From assembly GCA_964387845.1 (NCBI GenBank), contig CAYLXA010000013.1, positions 1 to 64,000 on the forward strand: 64,000 bases of DNA. The letters run 5' to 3'. This DNA comes from an uncultured bacterium (GTDB lineage: Bacteria; Omnitrophota; Omnitrophia; Omnitrophales; Abzuiibacteriaceae). A program made the position numbers and the translations under genes. Shown piece by piece: positions 15,358-63,537 of this stretch. Numbering within the stretch: position 1 is the stretch's first letter; every line of letters begins with the position of its first letter. Below the pieces are notes generated by a model, which ran no database searches, was not told the origin of the DNA, and saw only the letters and a list, made by a program, of their open reading frames with translations.

Positions 15358-15358
15358 T

Positions 15359-20151: not shown

Positions 20152-20155
20152 GCAG

Positions 20156-20455: not shown

Positions 20456-20949
20456 ACCTCTTTCCTCGTGAGTGAAATAACGCCAAGGATACCGACCAAA
20501 AGAACTAGCGACACGAGTTCAAATTGCAAAAGGTATTGGGAAAACAGAGTGCGCCCGACGCTTTCGATAGTTCCCAAAACAGATACGGATTTTAATTCGG
20601 TATTTGCCGAAGCATGGACAACGATCCAGATTTCAAGAAAAAAAGCGGTAATGACCGCATAAATCGTCAACCGCTTGAAGGATGAAGCCGTTTTTTGTCC
20701 CTCTTCGGATGTATTAACACCCATCAGCATCAGCATGAATAGGAAAAGAACCAAAATGGCACCCGCGTAAATTAAAATTTGAATAATGGCTACAAAATAA
20801 GCTTCAAGCAGCACAAAAAGACCGGAAAGGGAAAACATCGTAATGACAAGTGCGAGAACGCCTTGGGTCGGGCGTTTTGTGAAGACAACATAAAGAGCGC
20901 TTAAAATGGCGGCGGCCGAGAATAGATAAAACCAAAAAATTTGGGTCAT
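20452..20949 (-). CDS. nuoJ: NADH-quinone oxidoreductase subunit J (copy 1)
   Basis: 165-aa membrane protein in the position and of the length of NuoJ, upstream of nuoK. Confidence 0.75.
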   Translation of the reverse strand: MTQIFWFYLFSAAAILSALYVVFTKRPTQGVLALVITMFSLSGLFVLLEAYFVAIIQILIYAGAILVLFLFMLMLMGVNTSEEGQKTASSFKRLTIYAVITAFFLEIWIVVHASANTELKSVSVLGTIESVGRTLFSQYLLQFELVSLVLLVGILGVISLTRKEV

Positions 20950-35342: not shown

Positions 35343-35388
35343 GCCTTAAAATAGAAACCGCCACCTGAATTTTTCATTCAGATGGCGG
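35343..35388 (-). terminator. intrinsic terminator after nuoN2, only 22 nt upstream of the otsA start
   Basis: Stem ccgccacctgaat / attcagatggcgg (13 bp, one mismatch), loop ttttc, followed on the minus strand by TTTCTATTTT. Confidence 0.6.
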
Positions 35389-35540
35389 CCCGGCCATCAC
35401 TTCAAATTTAACCTCCGGAATATTTCCGGACCCTTTGGCGTAGAAAAGATTTTAAACCGTTTTTAAAATAAGGGCAAGGTTTTTATCCGAGTTTAGGAGA
35501 AATTTTCTACGAATTTTATTTTCGACGGGTGAAAAATATT

Positions 35541-41189: not shown

Positions 41190-42329
41190 TTATTCTGCGT
41201 ATCGATAAACCCGCTTCTTGGGAAGCATCGGTTTATTGATTGCCAGTAAAATAAAAACACTGAAAGCCAAAACAACACCTGTCGTGACAAAGTTCATCGG
41301 GAATGCCGAGCTTTTCCAGAGACAAGCGACAAAAATATTGACTAATGATAACGGAAGCAAAAATTTCCACGCAAAACCCATCAGCTGATCGACGCGCAGG
41401 CGCGGAAATGTGCCGCGGAACCACATCATCGTGAAAATAAGTGCGTATGTTTTAATCAAAAACCAAACCCAGCTGGGGAGAAGAGGGCCTTGCCAGCCGC
41501 CCAGATAAACGGTTGCGACCAGGGCTGAAACCGTAAACACATTCATAAATTCGGCCATATAAAAGAGCGCGAACTTCATGCCGCTGTATTCCGTGTGAAA
41601 CCCGGCGATGATTTCGGATTCGGCTTCCGGAAGGTCAAACGGCGTGCGGTTGACTTCGGCAACGGCACAGAGAAAGAAAATAAAAAATCCGACAATTCCC
41701 CAAGGCGAAAATACGAACCAATTCATTCCGGTTTGAGCTTCCACGATTTTTACTGTCGAAAAGGAGCCGACCATTAAAAGAACGGGAACCACGGAAAGAA
41801 TAAACGGAATTTCATACGAAATCATTTGTGCGACGGAACGCATTCCGCCTAAAAGTGAAAACTTATTCCGGGAACCCCACGCAGCCGTGAAAATAAAAAC
41901 GGTTGTGGTGCCTGAAATCGCGAGGAAAAACAAAACGCCGATATTAAGATCGGCCGCGATCATGTTGCGGCCGAAGGGAAGCACGGCAAACACCAAAAGC
42001 GCCGGAATCACAATCGCGATCGGCGCCAGCGTGTGCGCAAATTTGTCGGCACCGGTCGGCACGACGTCTTCTTTTGTCATCATTTTAACGCCGTCCGCCA
42101 AAGGCTGCAGAAGACCGAACGTTCCGACACGGTTTGGGCCGTAACGATTTTGAACACGAGCTAAAATTTTGCGTTCAAACCATGTGAGGTACATCATCGT
42201 AAGTGGCCCGAAAATAGCGACGCCCACAATCGGAATTAAAATCGCGACAATGACCACAAGCCAATCAGGCAGAATGGGCGTTACGATACTCACAATCCCT
42301 GCTTTTAAATTGACGAATAATTGATCCAT
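41190..42329 (-). CDS. nuoH: NADH-quinone oxidoreductase subunit H
   Basis: NuoH-conserved regions (YLTWFERKILARVQNRYGPNRVG). The start is taken at the internal ATG two nt after the nuoI stop; the K/R-rich upstream extension in the ORF track is probably untranslated. Confidence 0.9.
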   Translation of the reverse strand: MDQLFVNLKAGIVSIVTPILPDWLVVIVAILIPIVGVAIFGPLTMMYLTWFERKILARVQNRYGPNRVGTFGLLQPLADGVKMMTKEDVVPTGADKFAHTLAPIAIVIPALLVFAVLPFGRNMIAADLNIGVLFFLAISGTTTVFIFTAAWGSRNKFSLLGGMRSVAQMISYEIPFILSVVPVLLMVGSFSTVKIVEAQTGMNWFVFSPWGIVGFFIFFLCAVAEVNRTPFDLPEAESEIIAGFHTEYSGMKFALFYMAEFMNVFTVSALVATVYLGGWQGPLLPSWVWFLIKTYALIFTMMWFRGTFPRLRVDQLMGFAWKFLLPLSLVNIFVACLWKSSAFPMNFVTTGVVLAFSVFILLAINKPMLPKKRVYRYAE

Positions 42330-42330
42330 G

Positions 42331-42927
42331 TTATGAATTTGCCGGCGGAGTTGGTGGTGTTTGTGGAGCAGCTGCAGCCGCTTTCGCTTGGGCCAATTTC
42401 GCCGCAGCTTCCTGTGCCTTTTTGGCCTCTTCTTTTTTACGGCGGTCTTCAGCGATGCGCGTTGCATCGGTCGGCCGTATCTTCATAAAATATTCCGCCG
42501 GTTTCAGGAGCCTGTCTTTCGTGTAATTCAAATCATTGAAACGGCCGTATTCTCCGAGCTCAAACGTGTGGTCCATGTAAATCGCGTCAAACGGGCAAAC
42601 TTCTTCGCAAATACCGCAGTTCATGCAGATGGAGTAATCGATATTGAATACTTTCGGGCGCTTCAGCGGTTTGTTTTGCTCATCGGCGTCTTTGACGATG
42701 TGAATGCATTTGGGCGGGCATTCTTTCGCGCAAATATCGCACGCCACACAGCGAAGATTATCCGGCGTTGCATCATAAATTAAAAAAGGAAAATTGCGAA
42801 AACGCTCTTTTTCCGGCAAACGCTCTTCCGGAAACTGAACTGTCGTCAAATGATCTTTTGAAAAATAGCTGGCCACAAAGTTTTTAAGCGTGACCGCCAT
42901 TCCTTTTAATACACCTAACCCAAACAT
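42331..42927 (-). CDS. nuoI: NADH-quinone oxidoreductase subunit I (2x[4Fe-4S]) with an A/K/E/P-rich C-terminal tail
   Basis: CVACDICAKECP and CMNCGICEEVCP ferredoxin motifs, plus a ~40-aa low-complexity tail. Confidence 0.9.
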   Translation of the reverse strand: MFGLGVLKGMAVTLKNFVASYFSKDHLTTVQFPEERLPEKERFRNFPFLIYDATPDNLRCVACDICAKECPPKCIHIVKDADEQNKPLKRPKVFNIDYSICMNCGICEEVCPFDAIYMDHTFELGEYGRFNDLNYTKDRLLKPAEYFMKIRPTDATRIAEDRRKKEEAKKAQEAAAKLAQAKAAAAAPQTPPTPPANS

Positions 42928-42936
42928 CTAAACTCC

Positions 42937-43016
42937 TAGTTGTAAGTTGTAAGTGGTAAGAGATAAGTAAAAAGCTTTTAACTTAACACTTATCACTTAC
43001 CACTTATGCCTTATCT
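42937..43016. repeat. GTAAGT-heptad hairpin R3 at the nuoD/nuoI junction
   Basis: Left arm tagttgtaagttgtaagtggtaagagataagta, right arm aacttaacacttatcacttaccacttatgccttatct. Confidence 0.7.
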
Positions 43017-44174
43017 ATCAACTTCCCCTAAAACGATATCAACACTTCCAAGAATAATGACAGCATCCGCCACTTTGTGGCCGAGGCACATATCTTCTAA
43101 AATCGTCAAATTAACAAAGCTGGGCGCACGGACGTGATAACGATATGGTTTGTTCGTGCCGTCGGAAACCAGATAAAATCCAAGCTCGCCCTTAGGCGCT
43201 TCGATGCGGCTGTAAACATCGCCTTTCGGCGGCTTGAAGTTACGCGGCGTTTTTCCGATTGTGGCACCTTGCTTTGAAATATGCTCACCGGCCGGAATTT
43301 CTTTTACGGCCTGCTCCAGAATCTTGATACTTTCACGCATTTCCAAAATACGGACATAATAACGGTCATACACATCGCCATGGTCGCCTAGCGGCACGCG
43401 GAACTTGAAACGATTATAAATTCCGTAACCATCAACTTTGCGAATGTCGTAATCAACACCGGCCGCGCGAAGCATGGGGCCTGTGACACCTGCATTAATT
43501 GCCAAATCTTTGGGTAAAACACCGACGCCTTGCGTGCGGGACATTAAAATTTCGTTTTCGGAAAGCAATTTTTCGAATTCATCGAGAAACTTCGGATATT
43601 TTTGGATAACTTCTTTCACGCGAGGCAAAAAATCCTCCGTCACATCCAGTTTTTGTCCGCCGAAGCGGAAATAATTACACATCATGCGTGAGCCGGCAAC
43701 GCTTTCGAATAAATCGAGAATTTTTTCGCGCTCGCGGAATGCATAAAGCACGGGCGTAAAGAATGCGCCCAAGTCATTCAGCAAAAATCCGACGAGGAGC
43801 GTGTGATTCACAAGCCGCGTGAGTTCCGCCATGATGATTCGAATATACTGTGCGCGCTCTGAAACCTCGATTTTGGCGAGTTTTTCAACCGCCATTGCGT
43901 AAGAAAAATTGTTGGTCATCGAGCAGAGATAATCCAAGCGGTCCGTAAAGGGCATCGAGGCCAAGTAAGTCATATTTTCGGCGAGTTTTTCGTGATTGCG
44001 GTGCAGATAGCCCATGAAAGGCTTCAGCTGAACAATGTTTTCGCCGTCGAGTTTAATATCCATCCGGAACACGCCGTGCGTGGAAGGGTGCTGCGGCCCG
44101 AGGCTGACTTCGAGCGTTTGCGTGTCGAGCGTTTTATCGAGTAAATTATGTTCCATATTTATTTTCGTCGTCAT
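43011..44174 (-). CDS. nuoD: NADH-quinone oxidoreductase subunit D (49 kDa)
   Basis: 387 aa with the NiFe-hydrogenase-large-subunit-like fold signature and the conserved C-terminus [12 protein letters not shown]. Confidence 0.93.
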
Positions 44175-44700: not shown

Positions 44701-45344
44701 GAATACACCGTAATGTCTTTGCGGGAATTGGCCTGCGGATTCCAAATTTCAGGATTGTACTTCGGGATTAAACCGTTCGGCCCGTATTCCGGAACCGGAA
44801 ATTCACGTTTCAGGCCTTTTTGATACCACTCGGTTTTTTCAATTTCTTGCGAATCGATTTTCTCTTGAAGCTTCATTAAACCATGCAAGAGCGCTTCCGG
44901 GCGCGGCGGGCAACCGGGCAGGTGAACATCGACCGGAATGTAACGATCAATTCCTTTTAACACATTGTATCCGTCGATAAACGGGCCGCCCGAAATGGAA
45001 CAAGCGCCCATCGTGATGCAATATTTCGGCTCCGGCATTTGATTGTAGAGACGAACCACATTCGGCGCCATTTTTTTGGTGACTGTGCCGGCGATGATGA
45101 TGAGGTCAGCTTGACGCGGCGAAGCGCGGAAAAGTCCCGCGCCGAATCGATCGATGTCGTAGCGTGCGCAGGCCGTGGCGATCATTTCAATCGCGCAGCA
45201 AGCAAGTCCGAACTGGAGCGGCCAAATAGAAGAGCGGCGGCCCCAATTGTAAAGCGCTTCAAGGGGCGTAATGTAAACGCCCTTTTTTGATAGTTCGTTT
45301 TTTAAACCGTCTTCAACTTGATTAACATTCGGTGTGAAAGCCAT
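44697..45344 (-). CDS. nuoB: NADH-quinone oxidoreductase subunit B (20 kDa) with a ~55-aa C-terminal extension
   Basis: GLACCAIEM and the cysteines ligating cluster N2. The start is taken at the ATG overlapping the nuoA TAA stop. Confidence 0.88.
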
Positions 45345-45718
45345 TATTTCCATTCCAGCGCGTGTTTGCGCCATGCGTAGGCAAGCCCGAGAGCAAGAAT
45401 TGCGATGAAAATTAACATTTCAATAAAAGCAAAAAGCCCGAGCTGGTTGTAAGCAACCGCCCAAGGGTAGATAAAGACGGTTTCGACATCGAAAATCACG
45501 AAAATCAGCGCGAAGATGTAATACTGGACCTTAAATTGAATCCATGCGTCACCCTTGGCTTCAAGGCCGCATTCGTAAGAGGCATTTTTTATCTGATTGG
45601 GTTTCTTGGGTGCGACGATTTTGGCTAGTATTATAGGAAGCGCTGGGAAAACAATGGCGACCAGAAGAAACACACCCAGAAACCAATAATTGTATAAATA
45701 CGAATCGATATTGTTCAT
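45344..45718 (-). CDS. nuoA: NADH-quinone oxidoreductase subunit A
   Basis: 3-TM protein with a conserved ECG motif (YECGLEA). The ATG at 45718 is preferred over the TTG at 45739 because a promoter -10 lies at 45752-45757. Confidence 0.8.
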
Positions 45719-45751
45719 CTGAAATAGGGAATTGGACAACGATATCCGTTG

Positions 45752-45890: not shown

Positions 45891-48800
45891 TTAAACCGAG
45901 AGAGAAATTGTGGTTGGTGCTTTCTCGACTAAAATTTCAAAAAGGATTTCGAAAAATGTTTTCACCGGATTTCCGGAAGGTTTTGGGCCGCCGCGCAAAC
46001 GGATCATTTCGCCGTTGAATTTGTCCAATTGCTGTAATGACGCAACGCCGATTTGCAGAGGGGCGACACGGGTTGAGCTTTGGATTAAAGACTTGGCAGT
46101 TGAAATCGGTTCATTCTGAACTACCGCAGATTCATCAAGCGTTTCCAAACCTCCGGTTATTGTAGCAATTGCACCGGAAACATTTGCTTTTGTATTGGAG
46201 GCAGCCTGTCGCGGAACATTGCCGCTGCCGGATGCTGCCGCAGGCTGTGTTCCAGGGCTTGGGTTATTATAGGGCACAATCACGCCGACAATTCCCGGCG
46301 TATAATATCCGCCTGTGTTTTGAGGATTTGCCGTCTCTTGCGGTGAACCGTTTTCCGGCCCGCCTTCGTCCGGATTGGAATCCGGAGGATTCTGGGTTTC
46401 ACCGTTGGTAGCGGGGCTTTCCGGGATAACTGCAAATGTTGCTTCTATCGTATGATCAGAAGTGACGTTATTAAATGTATAACTCGAAACCGCGCCGACG
46501 GAGGTTGAATTCACAAGTACATCTTGGATTTCGTAGCGCGAATCGGGCGTAATTGTAAAAGTCGCATTGTCACCTTCGTTGACCACAACATCTCCAACCG
46601 GTGAAATTTGGCCGCCTTCCGAAGCGCTTGCGGTAATTGTGAAGGCTAGTGGATTACATGGAGCGCCTTCCGGGCAAATACACATATCGTTTGCTTCATC
46701 GCATTCTTCACCGGTGTCACAGGCAGAAGTTCCGGATTGGCATCCTGCTGTTGCATTACAAGTCTCGCTTCCGTTGCAGAATAATCCATCCGAACAAATC
46801 GAATCATCCGGCGTATTGGCGCAGCCGTTTACGGAATCGCAGGAATCATTTGTGCAGGAGACGCCATCATCACACACAAGCGGTGCGCTCGCCTGACAAC
46901 CTAAGCCGGGGTCACAGGTCTCCGTACCGTTACACACATTGGCGTCATCGCACACAAGCGGTGTTCCGGCCTGACAGGTATTATTTACACAAGCTTCAGC
47001 GCCGTTACATAAATTTCCGTCGCCACACTCCGAATCACTGATACAAGCAAAACACTGATCATTCGGTTCATCACAATGGTCCGGATCCGAGCAAGGCTCG
47101 GTTCCGTTTTGGCAAATTCCGGCAATACAAATTTCGGCTCCTGTGCAGAATAACCCGTCAGAACAGCTCATACCATCCACAACCGGGGTTGATTCGCAGC
47201 CCGTTGCAGGATCACAAGCTTCCGCGGTGCATGGATTGCCGTCATCACAGACAAGCGGCGCGCCTGTTTGACAACCCAGCGTTGAGTCGCAACTTTCAGG
47301 GCCGTTACAGACATTTCCGTCATCACATGTTAGCGGTATCCCGGATTGGCAACCCAAGGCAGAATCGCAGGTTTCTGTTCCGTTGCAGATGTTGCCATCA
47401 TCGCAAACGAGAGAAGTTCCGGCTGTACAGATGCCTGCCTGGCAAGTTTCCGTTCCATTACAAGCGTTGCTGTCATCACAGTCGGAGTCATTAAGGCATC
47501 CTGTGCATTGATCGTTTGTTTCGTCGCAGATCAGGTTTGGTCCTGAGCAAGGTGCCGGATTTGATTGGCAACCCAGAGCGGCGTTGCAGATTTCAGCTCC
47601 CGTGCAAAATAATCCGTCCGAGCAAACCGAATTGTCTGTTGTATGCACACATCCGCTCAAAGAATCGCAGGAATCATTCGTACAAGCAATTCCATCATCA
47701 CAATTAAGAGGAACACCCGATAAACAACCCAAAGTTGGATCGCAAGATTCAATACCGTTACACGCATCGGCGTCTCCGCAGTTTAATGGCGCACCCAACT
47801 GACAGCCAAGGACAGAATCACAGGTTTCTGTTCCGTTGCAGAGGTTGCCGTCATCGCAAGCAAGCGGAGTTCCTGGCTGGCATGAACCCGAGACGCAGGT
47901 TTCTGTGCCATTACAGGTATTGTTGTCTGAGCAATTTGCATCGGTTAAACATGCTTGCACTACGATAGTGATTGCCGGTGAAAATCCGCTGCCGAAACCG
48001 CCATCCTGAGGCGGCTGGGACCAAGCCTGTACACGGGCGTAGTAAGTTCCGGTTTGTGAAATTACAAACGGTTCAAAAATTCCCGATGGCCAGCGTTCAT
48101 CGATATTCTGTACAAAATTTGGATCCGGCGACAATTGTACTTGATAGATCGCAGCGCCCGGAACCGCGTCCCATTCCAAATTGAATGCTCCTAAATTCGG
48201 CGAAGGCGGATTTGCGCTCACGCCGGGCGGCGCCGAGAAATTCACGGAAATCATAATATCGTCGGAACCTGTGAGCATCGAGTCATCTGCGGTCAACCGT
48301 AATTGATAAGAACCCGGATGCGAAAATGTAACGGACGTGCTGGTATTGTTCGGCGGATTGAATGTGGCGATACCGCCGGAGCTGGTTACTTGCGACCAGC
48401 TGACCGTCACCGCACCGGGCGGATTCGGCAGACCATCATCCGTCACGCCGCCGTTAATGATTGCCGAAGTGCCGAAAGCGACGGTTTGATCATTTCCAAG
48501 GTCAACGGTTGGATTTTCATTCTGTAAAGTCGATTGGTACTCATACGGACCGATGTCGGTTTGCGCATCGCGCGGGCGGTCTCTGACGTCGGTATGCAAA
48601 TTCGGCATCGGAAATCCCGCGTCAATGGCGGCTGATTCGCTGTGCAAATCGTAATCGTTGACCGAAGGAGCTTCTGAAAAATTAACCATCAACACATCCG
48701 TTGCGGTTTGCAGGCTCGAATATGTGTCGACGCCGTTGAGAAATGACCGCCAGTTGTTGAAATTGGTTATGGGATCTGGTGACGACCACTCGATCCCGCC

Positions 48801-51800
48801 GGCTGCGAAATACTGACAGTCGATATAGATATTGTTGTTGTGCTGAATCGCCGCAAAATCTGTGTAGTTGAAGTAAGCTGCGCAATAAGCCGGCGCCGCT
48901 TCTTTTTTGTAAACGATGTTGTTTAAGAACTGAATGTTGGGGGCGCTTGACGGACTTGCCTCTGCGCCGATGAGGACCACGTAACTATCGTATCCGTTGC
49001 CGATCAGTAAATTGTTATAGAATCGGCCGTTTTCTTGGACGTTGTCCAAAGACAAAGCTTTTCCGATCGATGCGTCTACCACGTTATTAAAGAATTCAAT
49101 GTTGGAACCTATGCCGCCGACCGTGCCGTTGATGTAATTGTTGTAATAGCGGCTGTTACGGTTGAGTTGAAGTGCGCCCGAAAGGCCGGCGTTGATCGTT
49201 ATGTTGTTCGAAAATAAATTGCCAGCAGCATGTCCATAAATCACATGGCCGTATCGGTCATAGGTGTATTGCCAAGGATCTGATATTTCTGAAAGGCATA
49301 TCTCAACAGGATAGCTGGAGTCGTCGGCAATGACGAGAGGCCCGATATTTTCAAATCGGTTGTTCTGATAAGTAAAATAGTTATCAATTGTCGGGTGGGG
49401 CGTTAGATCCGCGATACCCATGCTATTAAGGCTTCTGAGAGTACTGTCATAAACTTCGATATATTGACCGGGATTTCCGCCGGGCAGCGGGTTCATTTTA
49501 ATACCTTCCTCGCCATGCTGAATGGTTAAGCCGATGAAACGGATGTAGGATGCTGACGTGTAAAACCGGTTTTGTCCGGGAAAGTAAAACGAATGTTCTG
49601 ACGGGTTGGTCCCGGACGGGAGGCGAATGTATAAGCGCCCACTTGTGCAATCGATAAAATAAGCGTTGAATGAAGTATTGGAATTCGGGATTGTTAATAC
49701 ATCAAGCATATCTTGATGACGGAGCATGCGGCTGAAGGGCCGTTCAAGATCCATGATTATGCCTCTCGGATAATTTCCTTCACCGCCGTTTGCGTTAGGA
49801 TCGTATGTTCCAAGCGATGTATCAGTCCACCAGATTGAATAATTGCCCGCGTTTTCTGAAAATGTCCAGTTTGAAGGAATGCTTGCTCCCGAATCAATGA
49901 CCGGTGTTTCGCCGGGATAGTTTCGAATGGTTACCCACTGATTCGGCGCTCCGCCGCGATCCATAAGGTTGTAGGATCCAAACGGCTGTGTTCCACCGCG
50001 GATGTAAACCGTATCTCCAGGATTGAGCTGATCAAACGTTGCGCTTACATTGCAAATCGGCTGGGCAAGAGATCCGGGGCCGCTGTTGCTGCACGCCGGA
50101 TTATTTGCATCAACTACGTAGTAATTTCCCGCGCAATCGTTTGAACAATCAAAATGGCTTTCACGCCGGAGATCACAGTAACCGTCACCGCAAGTCCCGG
50201 CGCAATCCTGCGAGCAGGTTTGAACCGTCTCTGGCGCTTCACAAATACCGTCGCCGCAAAGTGCGGTAGTGGTAACCGAAAAAGACGCTTCAATGGTGTG
50301 GGTTGTTTGTACGTTGTTAAACGTATAACTGGAAATAGCGCCTTGCGAAACGCTGTCGACGAGCACATCCGTAATTTCGTAACCGATATTGGGCGTGATT
50401 GTAAATATTTGATCGCTGCCTTCGGCAACATTGACCGTGCCGTTCGGTACAATGTAGCCGCCGTTATTTGCTGTTGCATTAATTGAATGTGAAGGGCCTT
50501 CTACTTGGCAGATTGAGCTGCAGCCGTCGCCGCTTGCCGTATTGCCGTCGTCGCAAGTTTCATTGCCGACGACTAAACCGTCACCGCAAATTGGATTACA
50601 TTCTGGGTTGCTGCCGGGATTTACAGTGTCAACGGAACAGGTCCAACCGGCCTCGTAATAAATCGTGTCTTGCATAATGGCCGAAATGTTTCCAACACTA
50701 TCAATCAATCTGGCAAACACTGTCCGTTCACCGCTCGGCCCGCTGGCAAGTTTCCAGCGCATGACGTTTTCATACGGAGTCGGGTCACTCCAAATTGTTC
50801 CGTTATTAGAAAATATTACGGATGTGATCGAGGATCCGCCTGAGTCAGAAACCGTTAAGTAGATATGCGAGTCTAACGAATAAGTAACCGCCGCGTCATT
50901 CTCAATCAGTATTGTTCCGCTCGGCGGTTCAAGATCAACGACAAACTGAACCACATTGGAATATTCGGTTGGGTTCCGCCCAAGTTGAAACGGCGGCACG
51001 GGCGGTGATTCCCATCCGCGCACGCGGGCGTGATAAGTATTTGAGGTGCTCAACGAAACAGGAACAAACGTATCGTTTGACCAAAGAGTCGTAACATTGG
51101 AAGCAAAATTAGGGTCGGTTGAAATTTTGATTTCGTAAGCATTTGAGCCCAGCGACGGAGTCCAAGCGAGATTAAAATCGCCGTCATTGGGCGTTGCGGG
51201 TTGCGCCAGAACAGGCTGGACGGCGGCTTGTGACGCAAAAGCCCCAATGTGGCAGCCTGTGCTTCCGGTTGGCGTGACGGAAACATTAAAACCGTTTTCG
51301 ATGACATTAAGGCACATGCCCGAGTGGCTTGCAGGACTGCCCGGTTGAAGATTGAAATCAGCGTTTGCGAGATCCACAAATTGCGGATCTGCTTGAATAT
51401 TTGAATCTGCCAGATTGAAGTTATTAAAATCAGCTACTGAGTAAAGCCCGCTCACCACGATTTGCCCGTTTCCGCCGCCATCTTTTAAAGCTCTAATAAC
51501 CGAAGTTTCGTGGGCCGGATTAGACGAGTAAATCAAATTATTTCGAATGTCATCGCCGTATCCGCCAAAATTCGTATCAACATATTCCAGCGGATCGTAA
51601 TGAAGCATTAGTAGCTCAGCATTGAAAGTATTGCCGAAAGAGACTGGTGAAACATAATCATGGTTGGCATCCATCAAAATATTGTTCCAGATGCGGACAT
51701 TATATATAGCATTCAGGGCGTCCGGAGGATTCCAGTTGAAATTGGCAGTATAAATTCCACGCGGCCCCGGACTGTGAATGGTATTGTTAAAGATGTATAC

Positions 51801-54800
51801 GTCCTGAATTAAATTTTGGTCAGCAACATTTGCAACGAGCGTGATTCCGGTAGAATCGTTAAATCCGTCATAAATAACGTTATTGTAAATGTAAAGTCGT
51901 TCTGTTTTTCCGGGCCCGATTTGAATTGCGCCGCCGCGGTGATTTGATTCTGAAGGGAATTGGTTGGTTCCAAAAAACGTGTTATTTCGAATAATCGTAT
52001 TTTGTGAAATGCCGGGATTTCCGTCAATTGAACCGATGCCGAATGAAGTGTGAAACCGATTTCGGAATGTATTATTCTCTATTAAAACATTTTCAGAATT
52101 CCGGAAACCGACAGTTCCATGTCCGCAATCACCGAACCAGCTGTTTTTAATAGTCGTATTTCTTGCATCATCGCCAACAATTCCGTCAACGCCGCCGCCG
52201 TTCATCAGAAGCAAGCTCGGGCTTGCCGTGCAATTTAAATTTAAATTGTCAATCTCTACTCCATCGGTATCGAGAACTTTAATTCCGTTTGCCCAAGGTT
52301 CCGCGTAACTTTGCTCCGGCGGCCAGCGGTGGCCAATGCCGATATCATCATTTCCGGTGAATGAAGTGACTGATATATTTTTGAGCTTGACGCCATTTGA
52401 CCGTTGAATGCCAAGCACGTAGGGTGCATACAATCTTCCGCCTGCGGTATCGATATGCCCAATGAAATTTAATGAATCAAAAGTAATGTCGTTTGCCAAA
52501 TAAGTTGTCAGCATATATATGCCGATATTGCTGCCTTGAGCCGTCATACTGCTGCCGTGTAAATTCACGGTTTCATTCGGATAGCCGCGAATCGTAATCG
52601 GGTTTGCCTCAGTTCCCGAACTTCGGATGACAATAAAATTGTTTGCATCAATGTAGGGGAGGAAGTAATCGCCGCCCCGAATGTAAACCGTATCGCCGAT
52701 ATTTAATTTTTCATAAGGAGACGTTTCACGAAGCGCTCTCGGCGTGCACCACGGCGTATTGGGATCGAGTGCTTGAGTTCTTGAGTAACTGTCCGAACAG
52801 TCACAATTATTTTGATCAATGAAAAGCATATTAGTTCCGTTCGCAAGCTCTTGCGGGTCGGAACTGCCGACCGTGCATCCGCCTTCGGATTGGCTTGTAT
52901 ATTCAAATGCGCCGGGCGCGCAACTTCCGCTTTCAGGACGCGGATTTCCGTCAAAATCCACCGCAACTTCCGGAAGACAAGGGACCGAGCCGATCGCAGG
53001 GCTGTCCTGCTGTAAATGAAAATCGCCGATACCAGCGTTTACGAAAAGCGGGTTGCCGTCTACGTTGTCTTCGGCGAATGACAGTGCATTAAATTCGTCG
53101 ATGGTGTAGTGATAACGCTGCGTGTTCCGATTGTTGGTGCTTTGGACCGGGTCTTCGGCAGGATTGAGTTCTTTGACCCAGTTATTTTCAAACACATTTC
53201 CATAGCCATTTTGGCCTTCAAAATCCCAGCCGCCCAGCCGGATTTCGCCGTGAATTTGTTCTCCTTCGCCCGTATAAGTTTGAATTCCGTAGAAAATATT
53301 ATTTTTGATTTGATTATTATTGGCCCAATTATTTTGGCCGAAAACGCCGTTATTGCCGACGCTCATGTTGGCGTAGCCTGTGTTGTAAACCGTGTTGTGA
53401 AAGATTTTATTGTTGTTGGCTTCAAAGAATCCGGTGCCGGGCCCGTTTTGATCCTGAGAATTGGCAATCGAAATTCCGTTTCCATTTAATGCGCCGTTGT
53501 AAATCACATTGTTATAAATCAGGTTGTCACTGGCCCCCAAAATCTGAATGCTGTTTGCGCGAAGCGTGGTCTCCGAAGGAATTGAATTGTAAGTATGAAA
53601 CGTGTTATTCCGGATGATGTTATCGTGAGAACCGACACCAACGGCGATATTGGTATGGAGCGTATTTGAAAAATCATTATTTTGCACCAAAACGTCATGC
53701 GTATTAAAACGAAGCACAAGTAGAATGTGGCCGCAGTCACGGAATGTATTGTTTTCGATTAAGCCGCCCGAGACATAATCCATCATGATGCCATCGCCGG
53801 AATAGCGGTTGTCCGGGTTAATTTGATCGTTAACTTGCATGCATCGGAAAAAACTATTCTTCACTGTGATGTTGCTTGCATTATCAAATTCGATGCCGTT
53901 GCCATAAGGTGCATTAGGAGCGCGATCGTCGTAGCCGATGTCATCGGTGCCTTTGAAGTCAACAACCGAAATGCTGTCAAATACAATATCGCTGCTTCCG
54001 CTGACAACCTCAATGACTCGCGGGCCATACAATTTTCCGTTTGGGTTACCAACATCCACGTTGCCGACAAAATGAAGATTTTCAAATGTGATGAAATGAA
54101 CGTCATTCAGAACAAATGTGCGTTCGAACGCTGTGTGCGCACCGCGGATGACTGCCGTTTCGCCGGGATATGAAGTGAATGTAATTCGGTTGCTATCGCT
54201 TGTGCCCGATGAATTGATTCTGACTGTGGTATCGACGATCGGATATTCACCGCCGCGAATATAAACGGTGTCGCCTGCGTTTAATTTGTGATTGGGCCGG
54301 TTTTCATGAAAGCCAAGAGGCGAACACCAGGGTGTATAAGGATCGCGTGCCGCATACCGGTCTCCAGCGTCGCTGCAGTTGCAATTATTTTTATCCACAA
54401 AGAGAACATTGGCGCCGTTGGCAAGCCCTTGCGGGTCAGAGCTTCCGGCTATGCAGCCTCCGAGCTCTGATGGGTGATTGTTGGGATCGTTGGGATTAAA
54501 TCCGCCTGCAAATTCTTCACCGTCTGAGTAGCCGTCACCGTCTGTGTCCGGATTATTAGGATCCGTGCCGTTTTGAAATTCCTGCAGATTGATAAATTGA
54601 TCATTGTCCGGGTCATCCGTGCCGTTTTGATTGAGATTGCCGAAGTGCAGCATTTCCCAAACGTCCGGCAAACCGTCTTGATCTGTATCTGAAGTGTCGT
54701 TGTAAACATACTCGAATGGACCGATGTCGCAGGCAGCGCCTTGCGGCCGGATATGGTTGTCAAAATCAAAATCTACTTCAGGAACACAGATTCCGGCATC

Positions 54801-56777
54801 CACTGCCGAGCTTTGCTCGGTTGGGTGAAAATCGTGATTCTGCGGATCGACAAATAAAGGCACGGTTCCGAGATTATCTACGATTGTTCCAGTCCCAAAA
54901 AGGTTATCCAGATTTTGAAGTGTGTAATCAAAGTGTATATACGGAGGATTGGAAGTTCCAAAATTTCGCGTAGACATCACAAATCCGCCCGGGTTGTCAG
55001 TCACCAGCAAATTATTTTTGATTTCATTTCCGTAACCCTGATTGGGTTCGAAGCCATAAATATCAAAGAAAATAGGACGGTTGAGATAATACGCATATGT
55101 CTGAGAGTAAGGTCCGTCGGCAGCTCCGCCGGTTTTAAGCTGGATGATATTGTTTTGCACTTTGTTGTCATGCACATAATTGGTATTTGGCAACAGGACG
55201 TCATTTATATCCGGACGATTATTAAACTCAATCGCTTTTACCATAGAGTTGTGCGTGGTTGCTGTCGGGTCGTCCATATAAATTAAATTATGATAAACCT
55301 GGTTCCGGTCGGAATTCGAATCGCCGTTTCCGATAAAAGTAATGCCGTGCAAGGAACGCCGCCTCGGCTCGTCAGCGTCGTAGTAAATGATGTTGTTGTG
55401 GATTTGGCTGTCGGAAGCCGAGAGCATTTCAATGGCATGGCCGCCTTGGTTTCCCGTGGTCGGGTACACATTCCAGTTGTAAATCAAATTATTTTTAATA
55501 GTCATTTGACTGCCGCCGAATGCAAAGCAGGTATGAAGTTCGTTATTACAGGAATTATTTTCAACCGTTATGTTGTCAGACCATCTAACCGTTAAGCTGA
55601 TATGTCCGCAATTTCCAAAAGTACTATTTTTTACGCTGCCACCGGATACGCGATTAAATTGAATCCCGTCGCCCGAGAAGCGAAAATCTTCGGTCGGGCG
55701 CTCAGAGTATTCAGAGCAGCTGACAGATGCATTCTCGATTTTAATATTAGAAACGTCATCAAATTGTATTGCACTCCCCCAAGTTTCATAGTCTTCCCCG
55801 GTTTTCCGCCACCTAAAGCCGTAACCGATGTCATTGAGGCTTTGAAAATTAAGAACGCTTGTATCTAAAATTTGAATATCTTGGGCTGGATTTCCAACAG
55901 TCCCGCTAATTCTCAACGGATTCGGCATGTAAAGTCTGCCTTCCGGCGTATCTTCATAGGCAATAAAATTAAGCCCCTTTAACGTAATGTAGCTGGCGTT
56001 ATTCAAGATCAGAATCCACGAATAATTATAAGAGCCGCCGCGTATGGTAACCGGCTCATAACCACTCGGTTCAGTTTGAGAGGGATATGCTTGGATCGTG
56101 ATCCGCTGCGCAGGCCCGGCGCCGGACGTATTAACGCTCGCATTATGTTCCGTATAGTCGCCGCGGCGAATGAAGACTGTATCGCCCGGATTCAATTTAT
56201 GGTTTGGCCTGTATTCGGTTAACCCGCGCAAACTACACCACGGTGTTGCGGGATTTAAGGCTTCCGGGCGTTCACGGTTATCGCGGCAATTACAATTGCT
56301 CTGATCGACAAACAGAACATTCAGCCCATTTGCCAAATTCAAAGGATCTGTATTGTTGTCACACTGACGAAGTGGAATACTGCTTGCGTTGGTCGGGCTA
56401 CTGCCTAATCTGATCTCGTCGTCATCATTGACGCCATCTCCGTCTGTGTCATATCCGATGTTTCCGTTGCCCACAGTTGGATTGGTATTAAAAGCAACTT
56501 CCCGAAAGTTGGGCACTCCGTCTCTATCCGGATCGTCGTATTGATCATAACTTGTGATATCGCCAAAGTATTGAATTTCCCAATCATCTGAAAGGCCATC
56601 AAAATCAGTGTCAATTTCACCGGCGGCAATTTGGGGAAGGGGAATGCCCATGAAGACGAGCGTGAAAATAATGATCAAAGAAACAAAATCAGAAAGAAAT
56701 TTGGAAACAACTTTCTTGAACTGCCGGGATTTTATTTTTTTTTTGTGTGATTTATCTGATTCGGAGCTTCGTCCCAT
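45891..56777 (-). CDS. giant (3628 aa) secreted/surface protein of repeated modules
   Basis: Uninterrupted 10.9-kb ORF with an N-terminal K-rich/hydrophobic signal. Four modules each begin ...LANG.N.LF.D..NC.C...PWC... GDTVYIRGG, followed by NN.I..N beta-helix-like turns. Modules: calcium-binding (thrombospondin type-3-like) DxDxDG repeats, four ~550-aa right-handed beta-helix (pectate-lyase-fold-like) domains, fibronectin-III-like stretches, two InlB B-repeat-like segments (YTFNNV..HTIEA.F), and about a dozen tandem ~38-aa Cys-rich repeats (CDDGN.CNGTETC). Confidence 0.85.
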   Translation of the reverse strand: MGRSSESDKSHKKKIKSRQFKKVVSKFLSDFVSLIIIFTLVFMGIPLPQIAAGEIDTDFDGLSDDWEIQYFGDITSYDQYDDPDRDGVPNFREVAFNTNPTVGNGNIGYDTDGDGVNDDDEIRLGSSPTNASSIPLRQCDNNTDPLNLANGLNVLFVDQSNCNCRDNRERPEALNPATPWCSLRGLTEYRPNHKLNPGDTVFIRRGDYTEHNASVNTSGAGPAQRITIQAYPSQTEPSGYEPVTIRGGSYNYSWILILNNASYITLKGLNFIAYEDTPEGRLYMPNPLRISGTVGNPAQDIQILDTSVLNFQSLNDIGYGFRWRKTGEDYETWGSAIQFDDVSNIKIENASVSCSEYSERPTEDFRFSGDGIQFNRVSGGSVKNSTFGNCGHISLTVRWSDNITVENNSCNNELHTCFAFGGSQMTIKNNLIYNWNVYPTTGNQGGHAIEMLSASDSQIHNNIIYYDADEPRRRSLHGITFIGNGDSNSDRNQVYHNLIYMDDPTATTHNSMVKAIEFNNRPDINDVLLPNTNYVHDNKVQNNIIQLKTGGAADGPYSQTYAYYLNRPIFFDIYGFEPNQGYGNEIKNNLLVTDNPGGFVMSTRNFGTSNPPYIHFDYTLQNLDNLFGTGTIVDNLGTVPLFVDPQNHDFHPTEQSSAVDAGICVPEVDFDFDNHIRPQGAACDIGPFEYVYNDTSDTDQDGLPDVWEMLHFGNLNQNGTDDPDNDQFINLQEFQNGTDPNNPDTDGDGYSDGEEFAGGFNPNDPNNHPSELGGCIAGSSDPQGLANGANVLFVDKNNCNCSDAGDRYAARDPYTPWCSPLGFHENRPNHKLNAGDTVYIRGGEYPIVDTTVRINSSGTSDSNRITFTSYPGETAVIRGAHTAFERTFVLNDVHFITFENLHFVGNVDVGNPNGKLYGPRVIEVVSGSSDIVFDSISVVDFKGTDDIGYDDRAPNAPYGNGIEFDNASNITVKNSFFRCMQVNDQINPDNRYSGDGIMMDYVSGGLIENNTFRDCGHILLVLRFNTHDVLVQNNDFSNTLHTNIAVGVGSHDNIIRNNTFHTYNSIPSETTLRANSIQILGASDNLIYNNVIYNGALNGNGISIANSQDQNGPGTGFFEANNNKIFHNTVYNTGYANMSVGNNGVFGQNNWANNNQIKNNIFYGIQTYTGEGEQIHGEIRLGGWDFEGQNGYGNVFENNWVKELNPAEDPVQSTNNRNTQRYHYTIDEFNALSFAEDNVDGNPLFVNAGIGDFHLQQDSPAIGSVPCLPEVAVDFDGNPRPESGSCAPGAFEYTSQSEGGCTVGSSDPQELANGTNMLFIDQNNCDCSDSYSRTQALDPNTPWCTPRALRETSPYEKLNIGDTVYIRGGDYFLPYIDANNFIVIRSSGTEANPITIRGYPNETVNLHGSSMTAQGSNIGIYMLTTYLANDITFDSLNFIGHIDTAGGRLYAPYVLGIQRSNGVKLKNISVTSFTGNDDIGIGHRWPPEQSYAEPWANGIKVLDTDGVEIDNLNLNCTASPSLLLMNGGGVDGIVGDDARNTTIKNSWFGDCGHGTVGFRNSENVLIENNTFRNRFHTSFGIGSIDGNPGISQNTIIRNNTFFGTNQFPSESNHRGGAIQIGPGKTERLYIYNNVIYDGFNDSTGITLVANVADQNLIQDVYIFNNTIHSPGPRGIYTANFNWNPPDALNAIYNVRIWNNILMDANHDYVSPVSFGNTFNAELLMLHYDPLEYVDTNFGGYGDDIRNNLIYSSNPAHETSVIRALKDGGGNGQIVVSGLYSVADFNNFNLADSNIQADPQFVDLANADFNLQPGSPASHSGMCLNVIENGFNVSVTPTGSTGCHIGAFASQAAVQPVLAQPATPNDGDFNLAWTPSLGSNAYEIKISTDPNFASNVTTLWSNDTFVPVSLSTSNTYHARVRGWESPPVPPFQLGRNPTEYSNVVQFVVDLEPPSGTILIENDAAVTYSLDSHIYLTVSDSGGSSITSVIFSNNGTIWSDPTPYENVMRWKLASGPSGERTVFARLIDSVGNISAIMQDTIYYEAGWTCSVDTVNPGSNPECNPICGDGLVVGNETCDDGNTASGDGCSSICQVEGPSHSINATANNGGYIVPNGTVNVAEGSDQIFTITPNIGYEITDVLVDSVSQGAISSYTFNNVQTTHTIEASFSVTTTALCGDGICEAPETVQTCSQDCAGTCGDGYCDLRRESHFDCSNDCAGNYYVVDANNPACSNSGPGSLAQPICNVSATFDQLNPGDTVYIRGGTQPFGSYNLMDRGGAPNQWVTIRNYPGETPVIDSGASIPSNWTFSENAGNYSIWWTDTSLGTYDPNANGGEGNYPRGIIMDLERPFSRMLRHQDMLDVLTIPNSNTSFNAYFIDCTSGRLYIRLPSGTNPSEHSFYFPGQNRFYTSASYIRFIGLTIQHGEEGIKMNPLPGGNPGQYIEVYDSTLRSLNSMGIADLTPHPTIDNYFTYQNNRFENIGPLVIADDSSYPVEICLSEISDPWQYTYDRYGHVIYGHAAGNLFSNNITINAGLSGALQLNRNSRYYNNYINGTVGGIGSNIEFFNNVVDASIGKALSLDNVQENGRFYNNLLIGNGYDSYVVLIGAEASPSSAPNIQFLNNIVYKKEAAPAYCAAYFNYTDFAAIQHNNNIYIDCQYFAAGGIEWSSPDPITNFNNWRSFLNGVDTYSSLQTATDVLMVNFSEAPSVNDYDLHSESAAIDAGFPMPNLHTDVRDRPRDAQTDIGPYEYQSTLQNENPTVDLGNDQTVAFGTSAIINGGVTDDGLPNPPGAVTVSWSQVTSSGGIATFNPPNNTSTSVTFSHPGSYQLRLTADDSMLTGSDDIMISVNFSAPPGVSANPPSPNLGAFNLEWDAVPGAAIYQVQLSPDPNFVQNIDERWPSGIFEPFVISQTGTYYARVQAWSQPPQDGGFGSGFSPAITIVVQACLTDANCSDNNTCNGTETCVSGSCQPGTPLACDDGNLCNGTETCDSVLGCQLGAPLNCGDADACNGIESCDPTLGCLSGVPLNCDDGIACTNDSCDSLSGCVHTTDNSVCSDGLFCTGAEICNAALGCQSNPAPCSGPNLICDETNDQCTGCLNDSDCDDSNACNGTETCQAGICTAGTSLVCDDGNICNGTETCDSALGCQSGIPLTCDDGNVCNGPESCDSTLGCQTGAPLVCDDGNPCTAEACDPATGCESTPVVDGMSCSDGLFCTGAEICIAGICQNGTEPCSDPDHCDEPNDQCFACISDSECGDGNLCNGAEACVNNTCQAGTPLVCDDANVCNGTETCDPGLGCQASAPLVCDDGVSCTNDSCDSVNGCANTPDDSICSDGLFCNGSETCNATAGCQSGTSACDTGEECDEANDMCICPEGAPCNPLAFTITASASEGGQISPVGDVVVNEGDNATFTITPDSRYEIQDVLVNSTSVGAVSSYTFNNVTSDHTIEATFAVIPESPATNGETQNPPDSNPDEGGPENGSPQETANPQNTGGYYTPGIVGVIVPYNNPSPGTQPAAASGSGNVPRQAASNTKANVSGAIATITGGLETLDESAVVQNEPISTAKSLIQSSTRVAPLQIGVASLQQLDKFNGEMIRLRGGPKPSGNPVKTFFEILFEILVEKAPTTISLSV

Positions 56778-58258: not shown

Positions 58259-58342
58259 GTCATTGCGAGATACGTTATTTGGTATCGAAGCAATCTCGGT
58301 ACTTAGATTGCTTCGGCACTGCACAACGCGCCTCGCAATGAC
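58259..58342. repeat. 85-bp palindromic element with ATTGCGAG terminal inverted repeats, copy A (5' of the membrane-protein gene)
   Basis: tGTCATTGCGAG ... CTCGCAATGAC terminal inverted repeats and an internal 12-bp hairpin cgaagcaatctc / gagattgcttcg. Confidence 0.65.
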
Positions 58343-59048: not shown

Positions 59049-59133
59049 CGTTATTGCGAGGCGCCTTAATCAGCGTCGCGGCAATCCCTGTTCTGAGATT
59101 GCTTCGGCGTTAATCAACGCGCCTCGCAATGAC
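59049..59133. repeat. 85-bp palindromic element with ATTGCGAG terminal inverted repeats, copy B (3' of the membrane-protein gene)
   Basis: ATTGCGAGGCGC ... GCGCCTCGCAATGAC. The 3' half is nearly identical to copy A (gattgcttcggc...caacgcgcctcgcaatgac). Confidence 0.65.
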
Positions 59134-62505: not shown

Positions 62506-62539
62506 TAGTGATAAGTTGTAAGTGGTAAGTGCTAAGTTA
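62506..62539. repeat. GTAAGT-heptad repeat arm R4
   Basis: tagtgataagttgtaagtggtaagtgctaagtta. A single arm between convergent gene ends. Confidence 0.6.
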
Positions 62540-63068
62540 ACTGCCAAGCAAGTTCCAAAAAATCTTTCTTCGTAGAATCCCAGCCGAATAATTTCGCACC
62601 GCGGGCTTTACCCCTGACTCGAACGGAGTCAGGGACTGCGTCGGCCGCGAAGCGATCGGCTTCGCTGTCCGCGCTGTCTTTTGTAACGTCGACTACTAAA
62701 TAATTCACATCAGGCATCAGAGGGCTGCCATCAAACGTCGCTTGTTTTTTATCTTCGTCCGAAAAATAAGAACCGACATCAACGTGAGAATGATAAATAA
62801 TCCGGATGACCTCGTCTTTTGTACGGGCGACTTTTTCGATATTCAAAAGGTCTTTGGGATCTAAAAAGTAGGCAGTTTTGCTTGTTCGCGGAAACTTTTG
62901 AGGGTCGCTTGCGTGCATTTCATCCTGCAAATTCCGGCAGGGAAACGAGTTTTCAAGACTTGCGGGAATCCCTTTTTTGCCGGTAATGATACCGCAACAT
63001 TCGGAAGGATAGGCTGAAATAGCATGGCGATAAACCGCGTCTATGATTCGTTTTTTGATTGTAACCAT
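62532..63068 (-). CDS. JAB/MPN (JAMM) metalloprotease, Mec+-like
   Basis: JAMM motif E...HSHVDVGSYFSDED (H-S-H-x7-S-x2-D). Confidence 0.75.
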   Translation of the reverse strand: MVTIKKRIIDAVYRHAISAYPSECCGIITGKKGIPASLENSFPCRNLQDEMHASDPQKFPRTSKTAYFLDPKDLLNIEKVARTKDEVIRIIYHSHVDVGSYFSDEDKKQATFDGSPLMPDVNYLVVDVTKDSADSEADRFAADAVPDSVRVRGKARGAKLFGWDSTKKDFLELAWQLT

Positions 63069-63100
63069 AGTTGTAAGTGGTAAGCGCTAAGTGTTAAGTA
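63068..63100. repeat. GTAAGT-heptad repeat arm R5
   Basis: tagttgtaagtggtaagcgctaagtgttaagta. Contains the JAB start codon and the last 4 codons of the four-helix-bundle gene. Confidence 0.6.
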
Positions 63101-63455
63101 AAAGGGATTTTTGAAAACCGCAAAGCATTCTTCCGACCTCATCACAATTTTCTGAAATTAGTTCAAACTTTTCATGACTAATATAAGCCAAATCAAAGCC
63201 TAATAACAGATGATATTTAGTTTCTTCTAGAGAGCTATCAGCTAAGTTTAGAAAATGCAGAAATTCTTTCCTGCTTTTTCTCTTTTGTCCTTCTACGATG
63301 TTTGTAGAAATGGAAGCGGCAGCTCTGCGTAATTGACTAGATAATCCGAATTTTTCGTCTGACGGGAAGCTTTTAGTAATTTTATAAACTTCCAAAACCA
63401 ATCGATGAGCTTTTTGCCAGACTTTTAAATCACGAAATGTACTAATTTTATTCAT
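63087..63455 (-). CDS. four-helix-bundle protein of the 23S rRNA intervening-sequence protein / Avd-like family
   Basis: 122 aa with the family-typical DLKVWQKAH...EKFGL.SQLRRAA.SI..NI.EG pattern. Confidence 0.7.
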   Translation of the reverse strand: MNKISTFRDLKVWQKAHRLVLEVYKITKSFPSDEKFGLSSQLRRAAASISTNIVEGQKRKSRKEFLHFLNLADSSLEETKYHLLLGFDLAYISHEKFELISENCDEVGRMLCGFQKSLLLNT

Positions 63456-63500
63456 AAACCCTCCTTGAATTAATATGATTATTTAATTCGTGGAGGGAAA

Positions 63501-63537
63501 AACTTATCACTTACAACTTACCACTTAAAACTTAGTA
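63501..63537. repeat. GTAAGT-heptad repeat arm R6 (inverted relative to R5)
   Basis: aacttatcacttacaacttaccacttaaaacttagta is the reverse-complement type of R4/R5. Confidence 0.6.

Follow-up and report, generated by a model that had tools for sequence, protein, structure and literature searches.

A heptad-repeat hairpin between nuoD and nuoI of an Omnitrophota bacterium as a probable gene-less copy of a dispersed cassette

Why should a complex I operon carry a tandem-repeat palindrome between two of its genes? The question is raised by a stretch of 64,000 nucleotides from a Candidatus Omnitrophota genome (contig CAYLXA010000013.1, positions 1 to 64,000; hereafter the window), in which a 78-nt imperfect palindrome at 42938-43015, made of (GTAAGTN)n and then (NACTTAC)n tandem heptads, fills the 83 nt that separate the stop codon of nuoD from the start codon of nuoI, two genes of the minus strand. 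A first-pass annotation of this DNA proposed that the element partitions mRNA stability, or is a processing site, at the boundary between the Q-module and the membrane-arm genes. We consider it probable, with appreciable room for doubt, that the hairpin is instead a recently inserted, non-autonomous copy of a dispersed heptad-hairpin cassette, lacking the open reading frame (ORF) of the full-length version, and that it is no evolved regulator of nuo.

The hairpin is confirmed as real and beyond chance. An inverted-repeat search gives arms of 32-37 nt with 84-86% complementarity, and Tandem Repeats Finder reports period-7 arrays at 42938-42960 (3.3 copies) and 42981-43015 (5.0 copies). Folded in the mRNA sense, that is, on the minus strand, the element reaches -33.4 kcal/mol against -17.6 +/- 2.8 for dinucleotide shuffles (n=200; z = -5.57), none of which folds as well. 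The predicted stem comprises 11 + 8 + 5 bp with small internal loops between them, plus outer pairs, or about 24-30 imperfect bp in all. The repeat is also frequent around it: GTAAGTNGTAAGT, with two mismatches at most, has 33 matches in the window where 1.44 are expected, a number that none of 100 shuffles reaches, and a lag-7 scan of the window finds 10 heptad arrays and none in shuffled sequence. A gathering-score scan of the window with 4227 Rfam models gave no match at any heptad hairpin and no rRNA. GUAAGU resembles the 5' splice-site consensus of eukaryotes, which we dismissed as a coincidence in a bacterial operon.

The mRNA across the junction reads ...GUU GAU AGA UAA-GGCAUAAGUGGUAAGUGAUAAGUGUUAAGUUAAAAGCUUUUUACUUAUCUCUUACCACUUACAACUUACAACU-AGGAG-UUUAG-AUG, with the nuoD stop TAA (43011-43013) inside the last heptad of the right arm and the nuoI ATG at 42925-42927. 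The limits first given for the hairpin, one codon inside nuoD at one end and about 10 nt ahead of the nuoI ATG at the other, are thus right, and so is its assignment to the GTAAGT-heptad family of the atp operon (coordinates of all features are in Table 1). Its description as a boundary between modules is wrong. The minus-strand gene order, from Pfam, is nuoA-B-C-D-hairpin-I-H, and NuoI is a peripheral-arm (Q-module) Fe-S subunit of complex I, not a membrane-arm one; the hairpin therefore does not lie between Q-module and membrane-arm genes.

Table 1. Coordinates of the hairpin, its siblings and the surrounding genes in the window, followed by the state of the nuoD-nuoI junction in relatives (percentages are NuoD identities)
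Feature	Position	Strand	Description
nuoD-nuoI hairpin, left arm	42938-42968		Plus strand reads AGTTGTAAGTTGTAAGTGGTAAGAGATAAGT; 4-5 tandem (GTAAGTN)-type heptads; 3' arm in mRNA, (NACUUAC)n
nuoD-nuoI hairpin, loop	42969-42980		12 nt, AAAAAGCTTTTA
nuoD-nuoI hairpin, right arm	42981-43015		ACTTAACACTTATCACTTACCACTTATGCCTTATC; 5 tandem (ACTTAYN)-type heptads; 5' arm in mRNA, (GUAAGUN)n
nuoI Shine-Dalgarno AGGAG	42933-42937	-	Abuts 3' arm, 5 nt ahead of AUG; unpaired in predicted fold
ORF-less hairpin, atpD-atpC	21318-21394		Fold -31.4 kcal/mol, z = -4.7
ORF-less hairpin, atpG-atpD	22804-22876		Fold -31.0 kcal/mol, z = -6.1
Solo left-type arm	62507-62538		No partner arm nearby; between sulfite-reductase-like gene (+) and end of JAB gene (-)
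Full-length (split) cassette	63073-63534	-	Arms 63073-63099 and 63501-63534, ~400 nt apart, enclosing the PF05635 gene
PF05635 gene	63087-63455	-	122 aa, four-helix bundle; PF05635 23S_rRNA_IVP, E = 1.7e-41; TIGR02436, E = 3e-38
nuoA	45344-45739	-	Pfam
nuoD	43011-44174	-	PF00346, E = 8e-97; 387 aa; public assemblies also have a shorter call of 381 aa
nuoI	42331-42927	-	2x[4Fe-4S] ferredoxin-type subunit; Pfam, gene order
nuoH	41190-42467	-	Pfam
Junction, window and L001			100%; GTAAGT-heptad hairpin
Junction, L002			93%; 174-nt spacer; unrelated GTCATTGCGA...GAAGCAATC / GATTGCTTCG...CTCGCAATGAC palindrome with nested insert
Junction, L336			85%; no spacer, TAATG overlap
Junction, L003, L005, L329			83%; no spacer, TGATG or TAATG overlap
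Junction, L330			83%; remnant of GTCATTCCCCGC-type palindrome
Junction, L006-L008	7156-7250 (in L006)		82%; different heptad hairpin, (GAATGAA)n...(TTCATTC)n, 45-nt loop
Junction, L331			81%; GTCATTCTGAGCGAAGCGAAGAATC-type palindrome, likewise at I-H, H-J, L-M
Junction, L332			78%; GGGACTGTCCC inverted repeat
Palindrome copies in L002	9870-10020, 11190-11345, 13105-13180, 14025-14105		

To what kind of family does the hairpin belong? The GTAAGT heptads form five loci in 64 kb: three complete hairpins (atpD-atpC, atpG-atpD and nuoD-nuoI), one solo arm and one split copy. Each of the three complete hairpins fits exactly between the stop codon of one gene and the start codon of the next, in co-directional pairs. 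The split, full-length copy has the same heptads and the same termini as the ORF-less hairpins and encloses a gene of the PF05635 family; in the minimum free energy fold of its 486-nt RNA, both heptad arms pair as a long closing stem (-134.5 kcal/mol, z = -6.5). The encoded 122-aa protein is related to PDB entries 2gsc and 2rld, each of which holds five chains. Furthermore, ORF-less and ORF-bearing copies have their arm/loop boundaries in common, TAAGTAAAAG and, at the opposite end, AAACTTA, and the boundary TAAGTAAAAAG of the nuoD-nuoI hairpin resembles TAAGTAAAAGGG of the ORF-carrying copy. These common boundaries faintly suggest that the short hairpins are internal-deletion versions of the cassette, after the manner of miniature transposable elements with inverted repeats (MITEs).

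Inside the full-length cassette (63459-63497, minus strand), an upstream CCCUCC is the predicted pairing partner of GGAGGG, the Shine-Dalgarno of the PF05635 gene, a pairing that suggests translational masking of the enclosed gene. It may be set beside a report that S23p is not synthesised in vivo in Coxiella (PMC4990558).

Is the tie between a PF05635 gene and heptad arms peculiar to this genome? From 31 aligned homologues of the window protein we obtained 80 loci in species-representative genomes of many phyla, and looked for the strongest inverted repeat joining the 160 nt on either side of each gene, with controls from an identical search displaced by +/-700 nt. The flanking repeat exceeds the 95th percentile of the controls at 64 of the 80 loci (median score 18 vs 8). 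Under a strict criterion of at least 80% lag-7 identity over 28 nt, the flank is heptad-periodic upstream of 34/80 genes and downstream of 34/79; a period of any length shows in just 2 of 148 control segments. Most arms consist of tandem heptads of lineage-specific sequence, and a few have period 8 or 9: GTAAGTN/TAAGNNN in Omnitrophota and GTGACTG, TCAGCAG, TTAGCTG, GTGAATC, GGGTCAG and others elsewhere. Besides Omnitrophota, inverted heptads accompany PF05635 in Nitrospirota, Planctomycetota, Acidobacteriota, Gemmatimonadota, Verrucomicrobiota, Bacteroidota, Chloroflexota and Proteobacteria. Closest to home, a sister genome (the 525-kb JGI contig carrying L002) has a PF05635 gene flanked by (GTAAGTC)n / (GACTTAC)n, again between two co-directional genes. 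Given the ORF-bearing sibling and this general link, the nuoD-nuoI hairpin is best read as a gene-less, MITE-like version of a cassette akin to the intervening sequences (IVSs) of 23S rRNA.

A scan of metagenome and viral contigs with the pattern (TAAGTNN)x4 proved too unspecific for a census: its matches were heterogeneous, mostly solitary tandem arrays from sequences of 35-63% G+C, and included only 9 hairpins with a short loop, 7 pairs with a medium loop and 2 cassettes that bear an ORF. Many close PF05635 homologues lie on contigs of just 0.5-2 kb, a pattern to be expected if the cassettes exist in many copies and interrupt short-read assemblies. We found no paper that links PF05635 genes with heptad arrays in the literature searched, a limited search that is no proof of novelty; the association appears to be new. 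The nuoD-nuoI element itself is ordinary, a new sequence family in a new context of known kinds.

The composition of the arms may offer a reason for their period. A stop triplet occurs in 29 of 40 consensus heptads of upstream (5') arms, compared with 21.2 +/- 2.6 after letter shuffling (p ~0.003), and in the consensus heptad of either arm at 35/40, where 27.3 are expected. Since 7 cannot be divided by 3, a stop falls in every frame once such a heptad is present three times (UAA in the case of GUAAGUN). A cassette so built could be self-insulating for translation, whatever the frame or orientation in which it lands, and this would explain why it survives precisely in the gap from stop codon to start codon in compact operons.

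Conservation of the element at nuoD-nuoI in related genomes had been set beforehand as a check of the first-pass proposal. We compared the junction in ten lineages (Table 1), the named NuoD homologues being from Candidatus Omnitrophota: four have overlapping nuoD and nuoI, five have other palindromic elements and one has the GTAAGT-heptad element. The element is thus confined to one lineage, and by that check a conserved, junction-specific function is refuted. The comparison indicates that the ancestral state is a stop/start overlap and that the junction is independently colonised by at least five different palindromic families. Empty sites (L003, L005, L336: ...GACCGNTAATG...) place the insertion between TAA and ATG, with no clear target-site duplication visible.

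Neither are the occupants of this junction faithful to it. The same palindromic families are found at many other boundaries, namely nuoC-D, H-J, K-L, I-H, L-M and atp junctions, which argues for opportunistic insertion rather than for a dedicated nuo regulatory device. The palindrome family of L002 fills four nuo junctions (nuoC-D, D-I, H-J, K-L), two of them with a nested second palindrome, and nuoC-nuoD of L336 (2130-2215) holds a heptad hairpin of yet another family, (TTCAGCG)n/(CGCTGAA)n. What stands of the earlier interpretation, then, is the structure and the family; what falls is that the element is conserved, specific to this junction and a mark between modules. As further observations on these palindromes, GTCATTCCCG and GTCATTCTGAGCGAAGCGAAGAATC variants, related to a GTCATTGCGAG-type palindrome, fill nuo junctions in L329-L331, and the GTCATTGCGAG...GCAATC / GATTGCTTCG...CTCGCAATGAC family also has copies in the window, at 58259-58342 and 59050-59133. 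The NuoD homologue P0003 (91% identity) is on a contig of 1283 bp that ends at the gene borders.

How might a compact operon tolerate such an insertion? The full-length cassette carries its PF05635 four-helix-bundle gene in the loop, as ORF-bearing 23S rRNA IVSs do (~400-nt loop), and we propose that an ORF-less copy was recently inserted where stop and start had formed a tight overlap of the TAATG type. The copy would be co-transcribed with the nuo operon, most likely so because there is no terminator-like feature and essential genes lie downstream. Three properties may have made it harmless: the 5' arm (GUAAGUN)n offers UAA in all three frames; with no U-tract, it would not terminate transcription; and the unpaired AGGAG right after the stem would restore initiation at nuoI, replacing the translational coupling lost with TAATG.

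The likeliest molecular effect would be endonucleolytic cleavage of the stem by RNase III, for which a stem of ~24-30 bp is long enough; the alternative would be a barrier to 3' exonucleases. By analogy, the hairpin may plausibly act as a site for RNase III or stabilise the mRNA; any such effect would probably be incidental to a selfish or neutral element. In a PF05635-carrying 23S rRNA IVS, cleavage by RNase III inside the terminal-repeat stem has been demonstrated (PMC4990558).

Could the hairpin potential be a by-product, the heptads serving as iterated binding sites on DNA or single strands, for instance for a pentameric PF05635 protein or some other factor? We regard this as unlikely, if the least unlikely of the alternatives to a gene-less cassette copy. 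When the order of heptads in one arm is permuted, complementarity is not lowered (median p = 0.31 over 40 loci, with 6/40 at p <= 0.05; p = 0.35-1.0 for the GTAAGT copies of the window), so that arm complementarity is motif-level only, as binding arrays would have it. Solo arrays exist as well, both at 62507-62538 and, in numbers, in the metagenome and viral contig scans, and the strand asymmetry of the arms is consistent, 5' arms being C-poor (A 80, G 80, T 76, C 44) with AG in 33/40 and GT in 31/40 consensus heptads. The five chains of PDB entries 2gsc and 2rld would suit a pentamer. Finally, heptad core and protein clade appear to go together, with a TAAG core in the closest relatives inspected, L009-L015 (57-67%), L017 (52%) and L334 (63%), and TGAC, TAGC, TGAA or other cores in most of the more distant PF05635 proteins (~42-58% identity). 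However, this correlation is explicable by co-descent of protein and arms, with no need for recognition, and the binding is putative. The inverted arrangement is moreover near-universal (64/80), as a stem-closing function predicts, and the published IVS precedent works at the RNA level. A selected cis-regulatory RNA that sets nuoABCD against nuoIHJKLMN expression through processing or stability, as first suggested, seems to us slightly less credible still. There is indeed a stable hairpin within a polycistronic unit, a palindromic element of some kind sits at exactly nuoD-nuoI in 6/10 lineages, and REP (repetitive extragenic palindromic) hairpins stabilise upstream mRNA segments, malE-malF in E. 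coli being an example; IVS stems, for their part, are cut by RNase III (PMC4990558). Yet the occupants of the junction come from at least five unrelated sequence families that also settle at the other nuo and atp junctions listed above, the four lineages without an element keep a TAATG or TGATG overlap, and compensatory covariation is absent. NuoI does not belong to the membrane arm, and unequal stability of the two segments would be of no obvious benefit, as complex I subunits are needed 1:1.

We give little credence to a purely local simple-sequence repeat, that is, heptamers grown by slippage at gene ends, immobile, and tied to PF05635 only through a shared sequence preference. Heptamers are the most over-represented class of long simple-sequence repeats in bacteria (Mrazek and colleagues 2007, as cited in PMC4679880 and PMC4692102), copy number and variable positions differ among our copies, and the permutation result fits turnover within arrays. 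Slippage, however, explains neither paired inverted arrays nor an enclosed gene; a single family with similar termini (TAGTTG...) and loop boundaries recurs at 5 loci in 64 kb and at PF05635 in other Omnitrophota, and related genomes lack any spacer at the site. An intrinsic terminator or attenuator between nuoD and nuoI is the least credible reading of all, despite the strong stem-loop: the stem is A/U-rich rather than G+C-rich, the downstream sequence (CAACUAGGAGUUUAGAUG / CAACUAGGAG) holds no U-tract, and essential complex I genes follow in the operon. As a terminator and promoter scan also predicted nothing at the hairpin, we rejected this identity.

Several points weigh against a mobile, gene-less cassette copy, which we nevertheless continue to prefer. 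The permutation test gave no covariation evidence for selected pairing, at the 40 loci or in the window copies. The loop boundaries are weak evidence, as the strings they share are short and A/T-rich. L001, the only other locus with the hairpin at this junction, is probably of the same population as the window and hence no independent confirmation. We found no target-site duplication, transposase or other mobility function for the cassette, whose spread by transposition is thus conjectural; recurrent local origin by slippage plus recombination is an alternative. Lastly, some hairpin at nuoD-nuoI in 6/10 lineages could hint at a benefit.

The window contains a second heptad-hairpin family of the same architecture, (AAATTTC/AAATATC)n against its complement. 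One copy lies between two plus-strand ORFs (10970-11043; -18.6 kcal/mol, z = -3.5) and the other between convergent ORFs (15238-15358; -34.8 kcal/mol, z = -5.9). The latter is alone in the window in having arm pairing beyond the permuted-heptad null (p = 0). Heptad arms also touch the Prok-JAB gene next to the full-length cassette (62532-63068, minus strand), whose ATG immediately adjoins a heptad arm without a Shine-Dalgarno. The ~60-aa C-terminal tail of its product, past the Pfam domain, crosses a small CCCCTGACTC...GAGTCAGGG hairpin (62590-62640) and ends in the solo heptad arm; this tail may be repeat-derived read-through.

As to the genes around the element, the 387-aa NuoD has no exact record in our look-up, and the 381-aa version is on record as P0001. 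Directly upstream of nuoA is an ORF of 3628 aa (45891-56777, minus strand), whose syntenic counterpart in L002 encodes more than 3181 aa, with beta-helix, DUF4215 and Flg_new domains. Straight after atpC, at 18313-20949 (minus strand), are ORFs resembling NuoL, NuoK and NuoJ-type subunits by sequence, which suggests a second, partial complex I or antiporter-like gene set beside the atp operon. The sole Rfam match in the window is an nhaA-I riboswitch at 35380-35433 (minus strand; 44.1 bits, gathering score 37).

What does this mean for the nuo operon and beyond it? For the operon the result is deflationary: the hairpin would be a passenger that arrived recently rather than a conserved point of control between respiratory modules, and nuoD-nuoI one of many Omnitrophota stop/start boundaries colonised by palindromic elements. 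The part worth following up is the cassette rule that the element exposes. PF05635/TIGR02436 is, to our knowledge, a very large family of unknown function. It is conceivable, though we would not call it likely, that PF05635/TIGR02436 genes and their flanking inverted heptad arrays make up one widespread, undescribed class of hairpin cassettes, of which rRNA IVSs are a special case and which has left ORF-less derivatives at operon junctions in many phyla; the arms would be recognition sites of an Avd-like pentamer, used for spread or RNA processing, and period 7 would have been selected for giving stops in all frames. The inverted heptad rule would join three separate matters, the over-representation of heptamers, the origin of ORF-bearing 23S IVSs and the unknown function of an Avd-related family. 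The function of PF05635 becomes testable through heptad binding, RNase III processing and mobility, and annotators gain a means to recognise the cassettes and their ORF-less remnants, which probably cause assembly breaks.

Among known systems, the intergenic heptamer arrays GGGAATC of Xanthomonas and GGGGAYT of Nostoc (Rehm et al. 2015, PMC4692102) come to mind. They typically have ~4 units and lie between co-directional ORFs, near or overlapping a stop codon; they are transcribed, vary among close relatives and, in Xanthomonas, often form convergent pairs (PMC4692102). Heptamer direct repeats are also reported from Beggiatoaceae (TAACTGA), cyanobacteria (the heptamers called STRR, short tandemly repeated repetitive sequences) and Bacteroidetes (PMC4679880). 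The nuoD-nuoI hairpin resembles the Rehm-type arrays in its 7-nt unit, in having ~4 units per array, in its convergent arrays able to form a stem-loop, and in its position between co-directional ORFs with the upstream stop inside the last heptad; this position holds for both atp copies too. Unlike those arrays, GTAAGTN is A/T-rich, without G-runs, and forms no G-quadruplex, from which it follows that G-quadruplex formation is not a general feature of heptamer arrays. PMC4692102 and PMC4679880 stress G-quadruplexes or translational regulators, and neither mentions PF05635 ('S23' occurs zero times in both).

The element also invites comparison with the short dispersed palindromes of other bacteria: REP and the bacterial interspersed mosaic elements (BIMEs) built of it, enterobacterial repetitive intergenic consensus (ERIC) sequences, Correia elements and MITE-like palindromes. 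These are likewise short, dispersed, imperfect, placed between genes of operons and co-transcribed, and their presence varies between close relatives, as does that of our element. Palindromes of the REP/BIME, ERIC and Correia types can give rise to RNase III sites or lend stability to the mRNA upstream. The differences are the internally periodic heptad arms and the want of a known partner transposase, PF05635 being the only linked gene. REP is an imperfect palindrome of ~35 nt in which a 5' GTAG is conserved and which is mobilised by the REP-associated Y1 tyrosine transposase (RAYT); the sequence and the heptad periodicity of our element differ from it, and a Y1_Tnp gene was seen just in the relative L330, the window not having been scanned for PF01797. 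A MITE it resembles by its terminal inverted repeats and its length of 78 nt, whereas the longer related element encodes only a PF05635 protein and no transposase.

The protein itself recalls Avd of the diversity-generating retroelements: the 122-aa sequence matches bAvd (PF22296, E = 3.7e-13), of the same four-helix-bundle fold family, with an NCBIfam DivGenRetAVD score of 60.6 bits, under the model cut-off of 80. Immediately beside the PF05635 gene, the part of the window inspected for this purpose, we saw no reverse transcriptase and no template/variable repeat pair, its neighbours being JAB and rhodanese-domain genes. With the score below the cut-off and adjacent genes of other kinds, we rejected membership of such a retroelement.

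The nearest relatives of the full-length copy are the ORF-bearing 23S rRNA IVSs of Leptospira and Coxiella burnetii, described in PMC4990558 as selfish elements with terminal-repeat stems. That of Coxiella has a PF05635-family gene, a 28-bp terminal-repeat stem and an RNase III cut within this stem (PMC4990558). The elements described here lie, unlike IVSs, between protein-coding genes in mRNA operons and not in 23S helix 9, 25 or 45. Their arms are tandem heptads. The 63073-63534 copy is nonetheless similar to them in size (~460 nt here, 428-444 nt in PMC4990558), in its PF05635 gene and in the terminal inverted repeats that close a long stem around that gene. The nuoD-nuoI copy corresponds to such an IVS minus its ORF, in which the long terminal-repeat stem is present and the loop is just 12 nt.

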